From assembly GCA_030535245.1 (NCBI GenBank), contig JAUNBJ010000002.1:2418-66417 (forward strand): a stretch of DNA of 64,000 nt, given 5' to 3'. The notes below the pieces were generated by a model. It saw only the letters and a list, made by a program, of their open reading frames with translations, was not told the DNA's origin and made no database searches. The position numbers and the translations under genes are program-made. Below, piece by piece: positions 48,700-52,590 of the stretch. Position 1 is the stretch's first letter. The number at the start of each line of letters is the position of its first letter. The stretch comes from Planctomycetia bacterium (GTDB taxonomy: Bacteria > Planctomycetota > Planctomycetia > Pirellulales > Thermoguttaceae).

Positions 48700-51525
48700 A
48701 TGTACGTACTTTTTGCAAATACAGGTGTGCAGGTTCTATGCGTTCCGCTGAAGGGTGGGGCGCGTTATAACATTAGTCAGGTGGGCAACGGCTGGCAGCG
48801 GTGTCGGTGTGGTCAGGCGGCGGAGGTGGATCCGAACGCGAAGAAGCGTCGGAACGAGCCGGAGTCGCCGGCGGGGATGGACTTCCCGTATGTTCAGTGG
48901 CAGATCATTCAGGGAACCACGACGAAGTTGTATCTGGCGGTGGACACGACGTGTGGCGACCCGGATATTGGGTATTTTTGCGATGCGAACGCGTTGACTG
49001 GGGATTTCAATCTGGTGTTGGAATTTTTGCAGGACGTGAATGGTCAGCCGTTGCGGGGTGTTCCGCCGGTGGAGATTTGCATTCGTCCTGCGGCGGCGAC
49101 GGCGGGGGACGCGAAGCATGTCCACATGGTGGTGGATTTTGGAAACAGCCGCACGGGGGCGTTGCTTTTGGAGGTGGCGGGGGAGATTTCTCAGACGCCG
49201 CAGATGTTGCCGTTTGAGTTGACGAACCGTTATCATTTGGATTCGTGGAACGACGATGGCGAGGCGATTCGCAATCCTGGGGCGCGGTGGTTTTCGTCCA
49301 AGACGCACTGGTGCAACACGCCGTATCTTCCGCCGCAGCAGATGAAGAAGATCGAGTTTCATCAGGTGGATGAAGGGGGCGAGAAGAAGGGCTGGTTTGG
49401 TTGGAGTCATGGTTCCAAAAGCAGCATGAACAAGGTGGAGGTTTTGCGGCGTCCGGACATGTTCGAGGACTTGTCGATGGTGCGTATGGGCAAGGAGGCG
49501 GACGACGTATTGCAGGTGATTGCGACGGACGACGACATTCGGACGGGGGTGAGTTCTCCGAAGCGGTATTTATGGGCGGAGGATGCCAGCTGGCTGGAGG
49601 GTGCGAACTGGCACATGGCGGATCCGCACGACCGGGCGGGGACGCGGACGTACTGTTCGACGCTTCACGGGGCGCTTTTGAAGTACATTCATGAGGACGA
49701 CAACGATTTTCTGTTGAAGGAAACGGGGGTGAAGGCGACCGATTTTGCGCCGGAGACGCCGTTGAAGCCACGTCATGCGCCACGGTCGTTGATGACGGCG
49801 GCGATTTACGAGATGTTGGCGCAGGCGTACACGTACGTGAATTCGATTGGCTACCGAACGCAGTCGGGGGATGCGGGGCGAGCGCGGGAGATTCGGACGT
49901 TGACGTTAACGTATCCCAGCGGGATGATTCCGGAGGAGCGGGAGCGGCTTCAGAGGCAGGTGCAGAAGGCGATCGAGATATTCAATTTAACGTTGGGGCG
50001 TCATCAGCATGTGAAGCCGCTTTTGAATTTGTCGATTGACGAAGCCAGTGCGGTGCATTTGACGTACATTTGGAGCGAGTTACGGCTTTTGGGGCAGGAT
50101 CCGCGGATTTGGTTTGAGTCGTTGCATCAGTGCCGTACGAAGCCGAAGGAGGAAGCCAAGGTGGAGGAGCCATCGCCGATGATGGGTTCCCCGGCGGCAC
50201 GGCGTCGGATGGGGGCGGCGCGTGGGGCGTCGTCGATGAAGGCGGAGGAGGAATTTGGCGACAAGAACATGGAGGTTCGGATCGCGTGCATTGACATTGG
50301 CGGTGGGACGTCCGATTTGATGATTGCGAAGTACAATTTCGAGTCGAAGATCGACGATTACATTCGTGGGAAGGTGATGCATCAGGATGGGATTTCGCTG
50401 GCGGGCGACCAGTTGGCGAAGCGGTTATTGGAGCGGATCATTGTCCCGGCGTTTGCCGACGCGGTGGGGATGGACGAGGAGGATGTGATTCTGTTGTTTG
50501 GGCCGGAGGTGCCGCGAAACCGAGAGTTCCGGAACCATCGGGTAACGTGGATGAACCGGCTGTTCATACCGCTTGCGCAGCAATATTTGACGTTGGCGAC
50601 CGATGGGATTACGACGGAGCCGATCAATCATATGGATCCGGAGCTGATCGACCCGGCGATTCTGGAGTCGCTTCAGCAGGCGTTTGACAAGCTGCGTGGT
50701 CCGGGGTATTACAACCTTCAGCAGGATATGGAGCTTTACGTTCATCAGGCCGAGTTTGAGGGGGTGGTACACGAAGTATTCGACGAGCTTTTATTCGATT
50801 TCTGCCGACGCTGCATTGATTACAATGTGGATGTGGTGTTGTTGGCGGGTCAGCCGTCGAAGCTGGGTTACATTCAGAAGCTGGTGCGGATGTACCTGCC
50901 GTTGAGTCCGTCGCGGATTGTGCCGATGTTCCACCATTACGCGGGGAACTGGTATCCGTATCAGGACGAGAAGGGGCAGTCGCCGGGGGTGATTATCGAT
51001 CCGAAGAGTCCGGTGGTCGTGGGGGCGGCGATTGGGTTCATGGCCGAGCATGGGATGTTGCCGCAGTTCAAGTTTGAGATGTCGGGCAAGTCGGAGGAGA
51101 ACACGTACTATTGGGGCGTGATGAGTGATTCGACCAGTGGGATTCGGAAGGAGCGGATTCTGTTTTCTCCGGCGGACGAGAGTGCGCGGGAGGAGATCAC
51201 GGAGTTTTCGACCAGCTCGCAGCGGGTGATTATTGGTCGAAAGATGAGTCCGGTGGAGACGGCTCAGGCGACGCCGATTTACGTCATCAAGATGGATGTA
51301 GGGGATCGAATTGGTCGGACGCAGGTTTCGGTGAAGATCAAGCGGCACAAGGCGGAAGCGGGCGTCGAGGAAGGTCTGGAAGTGGAATCGGTCAGTGGTA
51401 TCGTAGCGGGTCAGGACGCGGTGTTGGGCGAGAACGTGTTTTTCACGTGGCGCACGTTGGCCGACGAGCGGTACTATCTGGACACGGGCGGGCTGGACAA
51501 TATCGAGCTGGGCGGCGTGGTTTGA
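48700..51525 (+). CDS. Hsp70/actin-fold ATPase with large insertions (possibly SrfB-like), function unknown
   Basis: VVDFGNSRTG (aa 144-153), SIDEASAVHL (aa 445-454, cf. DnaK NEPTAAAL), IDIGGGTSD (aa 531-539, nt 50290-50316), VVLLAGQPSKLGYIQ (aa 712-726), DPKSPVVVGAAIG (aa 767-779, cf. NPDEAVAIGAA). Confidence 0.7.
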   Translation: MYVLFANTGVQVLCVPLKGGARYNISQVGNGWQRCRCGQAAEVDPNAKKRRNEPESPAGMDFPYVQWQIIQGTTTKLYLAVDTTCGDPDIGYFCDANALTGDFNLVLEFLQDVNGQPLRGVPPVEICIRPAAATAGDAKHVHMVVDFGNSRTGALLLEVAGEISQTPQMLPFELTNRYHLDSWNDDGEAIRNPGARWFSSKTHWCNTPYLPPQQMKKIEFHQVDEGGEKKGWFGWSHGSKSSMNKVEVLRRPDMFEDLSMVRMGKEADDVLQVIATDDDIRTGVSSPKRYLWAEDASWLEGANWHMADPHDRAGTRTYCSTLHGALLKYIHEDDNDFLLKETGVKATDFAPETPLKPRHAPRSLMTAAIYEMLAQAYTYVNSIGYRTQSGDAGRAREIRTLTLTYPSGMIPEERERLQRQVQKAIEIFNLTLGRHQHVKPLLNLSIDEASAVHLTYIWSELRLLGQDPRIWFESLHQCRTKPKEEAKVEEPSPMMGSPAARRRMGAARGASSMKAEEEFGDKNMEVRIACIDIGGGTSDLMIAKYNFESKIDDYIRGKVMHQDGISLAGDQLAKRLLERIIVPAFADAVGMDEEDVILLFGPEVPRNREFRNHRVTWMNRLFIPLAQQYLTLATDGITTEPINHMDPELIDPAILESLQQAFDKLRGPGYYNLQQDMELYVHQAEFEGVVHEVFDELLFDFCRRCIDYNVDVVLLAGQPSKLGYIQKLVRMYLPLSPSRIVPMFHHYAGNWYPYQDEKGQSPGVIIDPKSPVVVGAAIGFMAEHGMLPQFKFEMSGKSEENTYYWGVMSDSTSGIRKERILFSPADESAREEITEFSTSSQRVIIGRKMSPVETAQATPIYVIKMDVGDRIGRTQVSVKIKRHKAEAGVEEGLEVESVSGIVAGQDAVLGENVFFTWRTLADERYYLDTGGLDNIELGGVV

Positions 51526-51636
51526 CGTGTGTTTGGAAAAGGGTTGCGGCGGGGTTTCCGTCGGGAATCGGCGTAGTGAGGCGTCGTCGCGAACCTGGAG
51601 AGATCAGCTTTTCAAATCACCAGGAGTGGAGAGATC

Positions 51637-52590
51637 ATGGCGTTATGGAATAATCGACCGGAGAATAACGGGAATAATGGAAGTGGAAGCGACGCAGCCC
51701 CGCAGGGGGACAAGAAGCCGGTTTCGCTGGGGGGGCTTTACGGGTTGATTGCCGAGTCCCAGCGTCAGATAGCGGACTATCTGGTGCGTCGTGAGGCGGA
51801 GTTACGGGCGGCCAGTGCGGGGAGCGTGGCTTCATCGGGAGATGGGGGCAAGTTCGACGCGAAGTTGTTGTCCGATTCCCTGATTCCGGTGATTGAGCGT
51901 TTGGACGCGATTGGGAACATGCTGGCCAACGGTGCGGCGAGCGTGGGTTCCGGGGGGATGTTCCCGGAGGATTTGGCGAAGATGCTGGACGAGCGTTTGG
52001 GTCGGCTGGAAGGGTTGCTTACGGGGGATCTTCCGATGCCGGAGGCGGTTCCGTCGATGGAGCCGCAGGCGGAGGTTTATCCGGAGGAGTCCCATTCCCA
52101 GATGGAGGTTCCGCAGGTTCGCACGCAGATGGTGGCCGGTTCCAACGCGAAGTTGGAGCGGGTGATTTTCGGGGACGAGCTAACGGGGAATCCGGCGCTG
52201 CGTCAGGAGCGGCAGACGATCATGGGGGGGCTTTTCGGGGGGTATCCGGAATGTGCCTACCTTGCGGGGGTGCTTTTGATGTTTCGTTCGTCGGCTCCGG
52301 AGAAGATGGTGCTTTTGCTGAAGGATTTGGGCGAGGCGTTTTATCGTTGGGCGGCGACGTATGGCGGGGATTACGAACCGATGGAGGACGCGCTTTGCAG
52401 TTGGGCGGAGCGGATGTGCGAGGGCGTGGGGCTTCAGAACAGCATTGAACTGGTTCGACCGGGGAATCGATTTGATTCGAGCCGTCACAACGCAACGTCG
52501 CGTGGCGTGGAGGTGACGCAGGTGCATGGTTGGATCATTCTTCGTGGCAACGGCACGGTTTACGCCAAGGCCATGGTGGACGTACAATAA
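51637..52590 (+). CDS. GrpE-like protein (candidate nucleotide-exchange factor for the adjacent Hsp70-fold ATPase)
   Basis: GGAGTGGAGAG RBS. C-terminus RPGNRFDSSRHNATSRGVEVTQVHGWIILRGNGTVYAKAMVDVQ parallels the GrpE beta-domain pattern (FDP..H.A ... GY.L.GR.IRPAMV.V). The N-terminal half is helical or low complexity. Confidence 0.5.
   Translation: MALWNNRPENNGNNGSGSDAAPQGDKKPVSLGGLYGLIAESQRQIADYLVRREAELRAASAGSVASSGDGGKFDAKLLSDSLIPVIERLDAIGNMLANGAASVGSGGMFPEDLAKMLDERLGRLEGLLTGDLPMPEAVPSMEPQAEVYPEESHSQMEVPQVRTQMVAGSNAKLERVIFGDELTGNPALRQERQTIMGGLFGGYPECAYLAGVLLMFRSSAPEKMVLLLKDLGEAFYRWAATYGGDYEPMEDALCSWAERMCEGVGLQNSIELVRPGNRFDSSRHNATSRGVEVTQVHGWIILRGNGTVYAKAMVDVQ

Follow-up and report, generated by a model that had tools for sequence, protein, structure and literature searches.

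The genes analyzed here lie in a 64,000-nucleotide stretch of a Planctomycetia genome of the family Thermoguttaceae (assembly GCA_030535245.1, contig JAUNBJ010000002.1, positions 2,418 to 66,417 of the forward strand), to which we refer as the window. It contains five consecutive genes on one strand, which encode a giant membrane protein (BIG), a P-loop NTPase of the SrfC family, a protein of the SrfB family, a protein of 317 residues (p317), and a protein that combines a zinc ribbon with a β-propeller (Table 1). An initial annotation, made from the sequence alone, had singled out the third and fourth of these genes as a non-canonical Hsp70-fold ATPase paired with a dedicated GrpE-like protein. 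Both open reading frames (ORFs), of 941 and 317 residues, and all motifs quoted for them are present, in the order given there.

The Srf proteins take their name from the SsrB-regulated factors of Salmonella. Genes for SrfABC occur widely, and annotations routinely call them virulence factors or toxins; we know of no biochemical mechanism that has been established for them.

Table 1. Features of the five-gene module, with nucleotide positions in the window and residue numbers in the respective protein
Feature	Position (nt)	Residues	Strand	Basis or remark
SrfB, 941 aa, ATG start	48700..51525		+	PF07520
SrfB N-terminal β-rich domain		1-141
SrfB Hsp70-type nucleotide-binding domain core	49123..51063	142-788	+	hhalign against DnaK; motifs
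SrfB C-terminal β-rich domain		789-941
SrfB phosphate-1 motif, VVDFGNSRTG		144-153
SrfB equivalent of NEPTAA, SIDEASAVHL		445-454
SrfB phosphate-2 motif, IDIGGGTSD		531-539
SrfB adenosine motif, VVLLAGQPSKLGYIQ		712-726
SrfB C-terminal motif of the nucleotide-binding domain, DPKSPVVVGAAIG		767-779
p317, 317 aa, ATG start	51637..52590		+	lineage-restricted family
p317 C-terminal β-domain, GrpE-like signature	52435..52584	267-316	+	hhalign against GrpE
p317 motif RPGNRFDSSRHNA		274-286
p317 motif VHGWIILRGNGTVYAKAMVDVQ		296-317
BIG, giant bitopic membrane protein, 2137 aa	39461..45874		+	possible SrfA analogue
SrfC-family P-loop NTPase, 868 aa	46053..48659		+	PF10139 Virul_Fac, E=1.7e-54
SrfC Walker A motif, GPSQVGKS		76-83
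SrfC DxPG motif		377-380
Zinc-ribbon/propeller protein, 874 aa, fifth gene of the module	52636..55260		+	Pfam PQQ_2, RUBY_RBDX

SrfB and its Hsp70-type core

The 941-residue protein belongs to a known family with an SrfC gene upstream, a link that had been missed when the ORF was described as non-canonical. It matches the Pfam family SrfB (PF07520) with 284.8 bits against a gathering cutoff of 27.1 (E=1.9e-84). The match falls in two stretches, of which the best aligns residues 515-931 with positions 549-990 of the 992 in the model. An identical protein, from a Planctomycetia metagenome-assembled genome (MAG), is labelled 'virulence factor SrfB' by NCBI. The homologues listed for the window protein are 65-89% identical to it, and its identity to proteobacterial SrfB is 24-26%. 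PADLOC returned only a weak match for SrfB in the window (PDC-M61B, E=0.004), together with generic kinase matches.

SrfB contains counterparts of all five nucleotide-binding motifs of the Hsp70 nucleotide-binding domain (NBD). In 31 homologues with 66-89% identity, residues D146, G148, E448, D532, G534-T537, D539 and G717 are invariant. The motifs extend over residues 144-779, a span of ~640 residues compared with ~380 in DnaK, which implies insertions of ~260 residues. Large insertions had been proposed in the initial annotation, and these we do find; the span of about 780 residues given there is in fact the position of the last motif. A further invariant motif, SSPKRYLW (residues 285-292), may, judging by its sequence, be the counterpart of the catalytic-lysine motif AIKRLIGR of Hsp70.

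We compared a profile of 50 SrfB sequences, those of Cereibacter, Rahnella and Klebsiella among them, with the NBD of DnaK. The reference sequences of E. coli DnaK NBD and GrpE agree with PDB 1DKG and other PDB entries; the corresponding Pfam and PDB entries are PF00012, 5NRO, 7N46 and 1DKG chain D for Hsp70, and PF01025, 1DKG, 4ANI and 3A6M for GrpE. For MreB and for the DnaK substrate-binding domain (SBD), the comparisons below used provisional reference sequences. In hhalign, residues 142-788 of SrfB aligned to DnaK 4-383 with a probability of 87% (E=4.1e-6), and all five motifs superposed on their DnaK counterparts. The score of this comparison (53.9) was higher than that with the provisional MreB sequence (38.5). 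A Foldseek search with the AlphaFold model of SrfB against the PDB gave 120 matches at E<=1e-3 (best E=3e-8), and the top 50 were, without exception, to Hsp70, Hsp110, BiP or mortalin, at ~12-15% identity in the alignments. The proposal of an Hsp70-fold ATPase core with large insertions is thus borne out by both profile and structure comparisons. A weakness is the poor quality of the AlphaFold model, which has a mean pLDDT of 50.

At the level of single-family searches, the relationship is much less visible. The window SrfB has no Pfam match to PF00012 (Hsp70) at E<=0.1, and searches of PDB sequences with SrfB and p317, using single sequences as well as profiles, returned no Hsp70 or GrpE match, because comparison of a hidden Markov model (HMM) with sequences is too insensitive in this case. 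An SrfB encoded on a plasmid of Cereibacter azotoformans (locus L004, 7164-10226) has a sub-threshold match to PF00012 (E=0.095) that aligns residues 750-813 with model positions 288-356. This is consistent with an Hsp70 fold across the whole SrfB family. In the literature searched we found no published account of the SrfB fold. We have very little doubt that the 941-residue protein is a member of the SrfB family and has an Hsp70-type fold.

We also searched for a DnaK-type SBD in the terminal regions of SrfB. Neither residues 785-941 nor residues 1-141 matched the provisional SBD query in hhalign (probability <1%), and this candidate assignment of the termini was rejected, in agreement with the earlier remark that no obvious DnaK-type SBD is present; the terminal parts of the model are too poor to rule out a β-sandwich there. 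Since all motifs for ATP binding and hydrolysis are intact, SrfB is, judging from its sequence, most likely an active ATPase. It is not a general chaperone, and the lack of a detectable SBD together with the low identity to Hsp70 structures makes a housekeeping DnaK implausible.

p317 and its similarity to GrpE

The gene following SrfB encodes a protein without any match in Pfam, NCBIfam, PADLOC or PDB sequences. A word-indexed search found 25 relatives of p317, and an HMM scan of 1.84 billion representative sequences found 296 clusters of relatives at 50% identity. According to its AlphaFold2 (AF2) model, p317 begins with a disordered segment, followed by long helices of low confidence (residues 31-129) and a disordered linker of ~35 residues. 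The best-defined part is a five-helix domain (residues 167-263); pLDDT exceeds 90 over residues 167-270 and the ends of the protein are predicted with less confidence. The tail comprises a strand (268-273), a short helix (281-284) and a hairpin (293-303 and 308-316). It contains a GrpE-like signature, G-x-R-F-D-x-x-R-H-x-A ... G-W ... A-x-V-x-V. We also considered whether p317 could correspond to SrfA, or to the product of the hypothetical gene located after SrfC in proteobacterial operons. It is neither, and the latter gene encodes a transmembrane (TM) protein.

As a large protein search seeded with GrpE yielded no sequences other than those of Geobacillus and enterobacteria, we built the GrpE profile from 79 diverse sequences drawn from a metagenome scan and compared it with a p317 family profile of 167 sequences. 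The single local alignment returned by hhalign places residues 267-316 of p317 on residues 136-192 of E. coli GrpE (P=2.7e-4, probability 41.5%, score 34.3). Residues D280, H284, A286, G298, W299, A312, V314 and V316 of p317 are aligned with D150, H154, A156, G177, Y178, A188, V190 and V192 of GrpE, and these are the best-conserved positions in both families. The order of elements in the AF2 model of p317 (helices, strand, FDxxRH turn, hairpin) fits this alignment. The profile comparison yields exactly the alignment put forward in the initial annotation. The E. coli GrpE C-terminus was given there as RPAMVTV; it actually ends in RTIRAAMVTV (1DKG).

Several controls set this match apart from chance similarity. 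Compared with the score of 34.3 for the real profile, a reversed GrpE profile scored 18.5 and 150 column-permuted profiles scored at most 20.9. When the sequences were split randomly into halves, the same region was the top match in four of four splits (P 8e-4 to 1.6e-2). Profiles of 25 families from neighboring genes, used as decoys against p317, reached a best P of 0.035. In reciprocal searches, the best match of the GrpE HMM over ~12,000 six-frame ORFs was a p317 homologue, and GrpE accounted for 11 of the 12 top matches outside the family when 12,070 sequences were searched with the HMM of the p317 β-domain, all of them at the segment GExFDPxxHxA.

A substantial body of results weighs against the relationship. 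For PF01025 (GrpE) there was no match of the window p317 at E<=0.1, none was listed for 21 full-length homologues, and none was listed at E<=10 when the C-terminal domains of 97 members were scanned in isolation; this last Pfam scan gave only noise (DUF7335 on five members, E>=0.03). The PDB sequence-profile search with p317 had no GrpE match, the scan of 1.84 billion representatives returned nothing outside the p317 family, GrpE included, and Foldseek with the p317 model against the PDB had a best E of 0.47 and no GrpE among the top 50. The similarity is limited to ~50 residues and is chiefly that of a motif of 12-20 residues, GrpE P151 and R183 are not conserved in p317, and the helical parts of p317 have no profile similarity to the four-helix bundle and long helix of GrpE. 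Two further matches did not hold. A resemblance of PVIERLD in p317 to LLPVIDSLD in GrpE, within N-terminal helices that were the sole region aligned when hhalign compared 21 p317 with three GrpE sequences (E=0.069), vanished with the wide family, and we dropped it as evidence because PVIERLD is a subfamily trait of 31 of the 167 members. Matches of the full-length p317 HMM to GrpE (E ~1e-2 in 12,000 sequences) reflect coiled-coil composition and were discounted. Moreover, the GrpE hypothesis arose from the very sequence that was used to test it. The initial annotation had let its proposal hinge on a significant profile match of the 317-residue protein to GrpE; read that strictly, the Pfam, PDB, library and Foldseek searches count against it. 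The profile-profile comparison, by contrast, does recover the proposed alignment, at a probability of 41.5%.

By the definition of the family, p317 is not a GrpE. We nevertheless slightly favor an evolutionary relationship between its β-domain and that of GrpE, a judgment to which its location beside an Hsp70-fold ATPase adds support. That p317 is an exchange factor or another regulator of SrfB is a tentative step beyond this, for which we would put the odds somewhat below even.

A five-gene module in Pirellulales

Scanning one genome per species, we found 133 relatives of the window SrfB and read the gene order around the best 80 of them. Nearly all of these 80 are labelled Planctomycetia (55-88% identity), and those with a finer classification come from MAGs of Pirellulales (Thermoguttaceae, Pirellulaceae, Ca. 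Anammoximicrobium). SrfC adjoins SrfB, in the order C-B, in all related loci with upstream sequence. Of the 58 loci that extend at least 1.5 kb past the 3' end of SrfB, 54 have an ORF of the p317 family as its direct 3' neighbor on the same strand, so that the gene is indeed the dedicated neighbor it had been taken for. Further, most related loci with enough upstream sequence have a BIG homologue 5' of SrfC, and in most related loci a homologue of the 874-residue protein lies 3' of p317. The order BIG, SrfC, SrfB, p317, zinc-ribbon/propeller protein, on one strand, holds in almost every locus whose sequence extends far enough. In the window the gaps between the five genes are, in this order, 178, 40, 111 and 45 nt. 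They were scanned for terminators and promoters, and none of them contained a terminator-like site; the gap between SrfB and p317 shrinks to 4 nt in one related locus (L001) and 14 nt in another (L003). Across loci, p317 is much less conserved (33-55% identity) than SrfB (55-89%).

One contig of 3.7 kb (L164, JABMRB010001343.1), binned as 'Candidatus Nealsonbacteria', carries SrfC and an SrfB of the planctomycete type (66% identity). It has probably been mis-binned.

Thermoguttaceae MAGs from rumen and goat samples (L098-L101, L153, L156) keep SrfC and SrfB, the latter 67-69% identical to the window protein. In this clade we detected no gene for BIG, p317 or the zinc-ribbon/propeller protein nearby, and in two of the loci, L099 and L153, with ~10 kb of 3' sequence, SrfB is followed by a GFO/IDH/MocA-like oxidoreductase and a HEAT-like repeat protein. 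Thus p317 is either not indispensable for SrfB or encoded elsewhere in these genomes, which counts against an obligate exchange factor, as does the fact that canonical proteobacterial SrfABC operons contain no relative of p317.

Among the other members of the module, the SrfC-family protein has the motifs of a P-loop NTPase, and G76, G81, K82, S83, D377, P379 and G380 are invariant in planctomycete and proteobacterial sequences alike. A search of PDB sequences with the SrfC profile gave no match.

BIG has a single hydrophobic 19-mer, corresponding to a TM helix at residues 210-230. It separates an N-terminal domain that is predicted to be cytoplasmic (residues 1-205) and carries a Cys4 motif (CDDEAC...CPIC) just before the TM helix from an ectodomain of ~1900 residues with Ig-like repeats, for which the Pfam matches to Ig-like families are weak. 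The N-terminal domain and TM helix are colinear with residues 1-246 of SrfA (hhalign P=9e-4 with three SrfA sequences), an alignment that makes BIG a plausible, if unproven, candidate for an SrfA analogue. The probability of this alignment is low (23%) and it is partly driven by the TM helix, which speaks against the equivalence.

The 874-residue protein has a PQQ-like β-propeller at its C-terminus (PQQ_2, E=3e-14) and a rubredoxin-like zinc ribbon at its N-terminus, recognized by NCBIfam and weakly by RUBY_RBDX. Residues 31-560 form a low-complexity region of ~530 residues (22% P, 16% G, 16% Q) with degenerate repeats resembling GGQPQQPF.

Other genes in the window

Directly 5' of the module and on the same strand lies a nuclease pair, SbcD (Metallophos and SbcD_C) and SbcC (AAA_23, SbcC_Walker_B), at 34779-39292. 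On its 3' side, 33 nt past the module, starts a gene for a metallohydrolase of the PHP/CehA-McbA type (55294-56613), for which a homologue was detected only in the closest relative (L085), so that it probably does not belong to the module. It is followed by an 838-residue protein (56914-59430) that has a weak PEP-CTERM motif at its C-terminus as well as passenger-associated transport repeats (PATR).

The window further encodes two Ser/Thr protein kinases. One (15189-17270, minus strand) has an N-terminal zf-HC2 domain and Sel1 repeats; the other (59644-61572, plus strand) matches many PADLOC models of PD-T4-6, with E-values down to 4e-96, which probably reflects generic kinase similarity. An ankyrin-repeat protein of 606 residues, of a kind that is uncommon in bacteria, is encoded at 32759-34579 on the minus strand. 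GC skew closely follows the coding strand: it is negative over the minus-strand genes at 1-27 kb, reaches +0.3 across the module, and changes sign near 27-28 kb and 34-35 kb.

A proposed role for the module

We propose that the module derives from an SrfABC system and has been kept in Thermoguttaceae and Pirellulaceae. BIG would fill the role of SrfA, and SrfB, together with the SrfC NTPase encoded upstream, would act on its cytoplasmic N-terminal domain. As a lineage-specific partner, GrpE-like in broad build, p317 might bind the NBD of SrfB, control the exchange of ADP and ATP, and in this way pace the SrfB cycle. To this picture as a whole, an SrfABC-derived five-gene module of Pirellulales that includes a GrpE-like partner of SrfB, we assign a probability of about 50%. 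A bolder version, in which SrfB proteins generally are mechano-ATPases of the Hsp70 type and the Pirellulales version, with SrfC and its own exchange factor derived from GrpE, forms a conserved, housekeeping-like motor in the cytoplasm that acts on the tail of BIG, is in our view speculative, and we lean against it at present.

An alternative is that p317 serves this lineage as an adaptor or scaffold and has no relationship to GrpE, connecting for example SrfB and SrfC to BIG or to the zinc-ribbon/propeller protein; its resemblance to GrpE in the segment FDxxRHxA...GW...AxVxV would then be due to chance or convergence. This would explain why none of the Pfam, PDB-sequence, large-library and Foldseek searches connects p317 to GrpE and why the profile match covers only ~50 residues at a probability of 41%. 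It would also agree with the much lower conservation of p317 relative to SrfB and with the rumen clade, where p317, BIG and the zinc-ribbon/propeller gene are jointly missing nearby and SrfC-SrfB persist, a pattern that links p317 with BIG and the zinc-ribbon/propeller protein and not with the cycle of SrfB itself. A chance resemblance is harder to reconcile with a P for GrpE that is ~100-fold better than that of the best of 25 decoys, with a score far above those of 150 permutations, and with reciprocal HMM rankings in which the two families pick each other. Nor would one expect the matched positions to be the most conserved of both families, or the neighboring gene to encode an Hsp70-fold ATPase, the very setting in which a GrpE-like domain would be expected. 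On balance we judge an unrelated adaptor to be unlikely, if not strongly so.

The annotation of SrfB as a virulence factor leads to a different view, namely that the module is a toxin of the SrfABC type, comparable to those proposed for Xenorhabdus and Haemophilus, with SrfB and SrfC as toxic or delivery subunits, p317 as an accessory factor for assembly, secretion or immunity, and the Hsp70 fold as incidental. The window proteins do reach the Pfam thresholds of SrfB and SrfC, the SrfABC proteins of Xenorhabdus stockiae are reported to be toxic (PMC6950479), and SrfA has been modelled as a platform for the binding of SrfB and SrfC (bioRxiv 10.64898/2026.09.18.752743). However, SrfB keeps 55-89% identity throughout two Pirellulales families, which are represented mostly by free-living or gut MAGs, a conservation that would fit the purifying selection of housekeeping-like genes and not the arms race of a toxin. 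The predicted membrane partner is a 2137-residue Ig-repeat protein rather than an SrfA of the lipocalin type, no counterparts of the vWA, Lol-like ABC and FGE genes bordering canonical operons were found next to the module in the window, and neither Pfam nor PADLOC detected a secretion signal or toxin domain. We therefore regard a toxin as improbable; the high conservation of SrfB across the two families suggests, from the sequences compared, a housekeeping-like role at the envelope.

That SrfB and p317 could simply be the highly diverged housekeeping DnaK and GrpE of this organism might be concluded from the window, where canonical dnaK and grpE are not found within the 64 kb. Against this, the 941-residue protein fails PF00012 and has no detectable SBD, its identity to Hsp70 structures is as low as given above, p317 fails PF01025, and PF07520 proteins co-occur with a normal DnaK in proteobacteria, Klebsiella and Rahnella among them. 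Also, DnaK and GrpE are near-universal, whereas the cluster is restricted to Pirellulales. We consider this explanation next to impossible and expect canonical dnaK and grpE elsewhere in the source genome.

If the module works as we propose, an Hsp70-type SrfB would offer a concrete mechanism for proteins of this family, a cycle of ATP and ADP with regulated exchange, and its tightly conserved association, within one bacterial order, with a P-loop NTPase, a giant membrane protein and a GrpE-like partner would support the same idea. It also suggests that the toxin label may mislead, in the case of the planctomycete SrfB at least. Should the connection to GrpE be real, the pair would represent a rare duplication of Hsp70 and GrpE that has diverged past family recognition and taken on a role other than that of a chaperone; should the motor on BIG be real, a cycle in the style of Hsp70 and GrpE would have been reused outside protein folding, pointing to the actual biochemical function of the SrfABC family.

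Comparison with known systems

The closest known system is SrfABC, with which the module shares an adjacent pair of genes on one strand whose 941- and 868-residue products pass the Pfam thresholds of SrfB and SrfC. SrfA is likewise encoded first and is a bitopic protein whose N-terminal domain is cytoplasmic and whose TM helix lies near residue 210 (bioRxiv 10.64898/2026.09.18.752743). The order in the window is A-like, C, B, in contrast to the canonical A-B-C, and where SrfA has a lipocalin domain, BIG has its ~1900-residue ectodomain of Ig repeats. Canonical proteobacterial operons continue after SrfA-SrfB-SrfC with a hypothetical gene and then, in Cereibacter and Klebsiella, with vWA and ABC genes. 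None of the vWA, Lol-like ABC and FGE genes known from the flanks of such operons was found beside the window module, and conversely p317 and the protein combining a zinc ribbon, an intrinsically disordered region and a propeller have no counterpart in the proteobacterial operons. SrfABC of Xenorhabdus stockiae is reported to be cytotoxic and insecticidal and to require all three proteins for full activity (PMC6950479). In the model of a 2026 preprint, SrfA forms a platform at the membrane to which SrfB binds first and SrfC second (bioRxiv 10.64898/2026.09.18.752743), and the published view is that of a tripartite toxin (PMC6950479; bioRxiv 10.64898/2026.09.18.752743).

With the NBD of DnaK and other Hsp70 proteins, SrfB shares the fold as well as all five nucleotide-binding motifs and their order. 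It differs in its ~260 inserted residues, in the additional β-rich domains at both termini, and in the lack of a detectable SBD-β or lid, and it remains below the threshold of PF00012.

The p317 gene resembles grpE in adjoining the gene of an Hsp70-fold ATPase, and the AF2 model of p317, in which the long helices are of low confidence, suggests the GrpE order of long helices, a helical region and a small C-terminal β-domain. In the β-domain, the GxxFDxxxHxA motif and the hairpin GY/W...AxVxV can be aligned (P=2.7e-4), but the β-domain of p317 is ~8 residues shorter, lacking the second strand and a loop. The five helices of the helical domain of p317 show no detectable relationship to the four-helix bundle of GrpE, and there is an extra linker of ~35 residues.

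A second Hsp70-type ATPase with its own exchange factor has been described in Myxococcus xanthus, where SglK, which is not a heat-shock protein, is co-transcribed with its own GrpE homologue, GrpS (PMC8265645; bioRxiv 10.64898/2026.08.28.747804). SglK complements an E. coli dnaK mutant (PMC8265645), and both proteins are bona fide members of the DnaK and GrpE families, whereas the window pair falls outside both and its ATPase has no detectable SBD. SglK-GrpS serves a process at the cell surface, comprising exopolysaccharide, fibrils and motility by type IV pili (PMC8265645; bioRxiv 10.64898/2026.08.28.747804), and is, by analogy, a conceptual precedent for a pair such as SrfB and p317.

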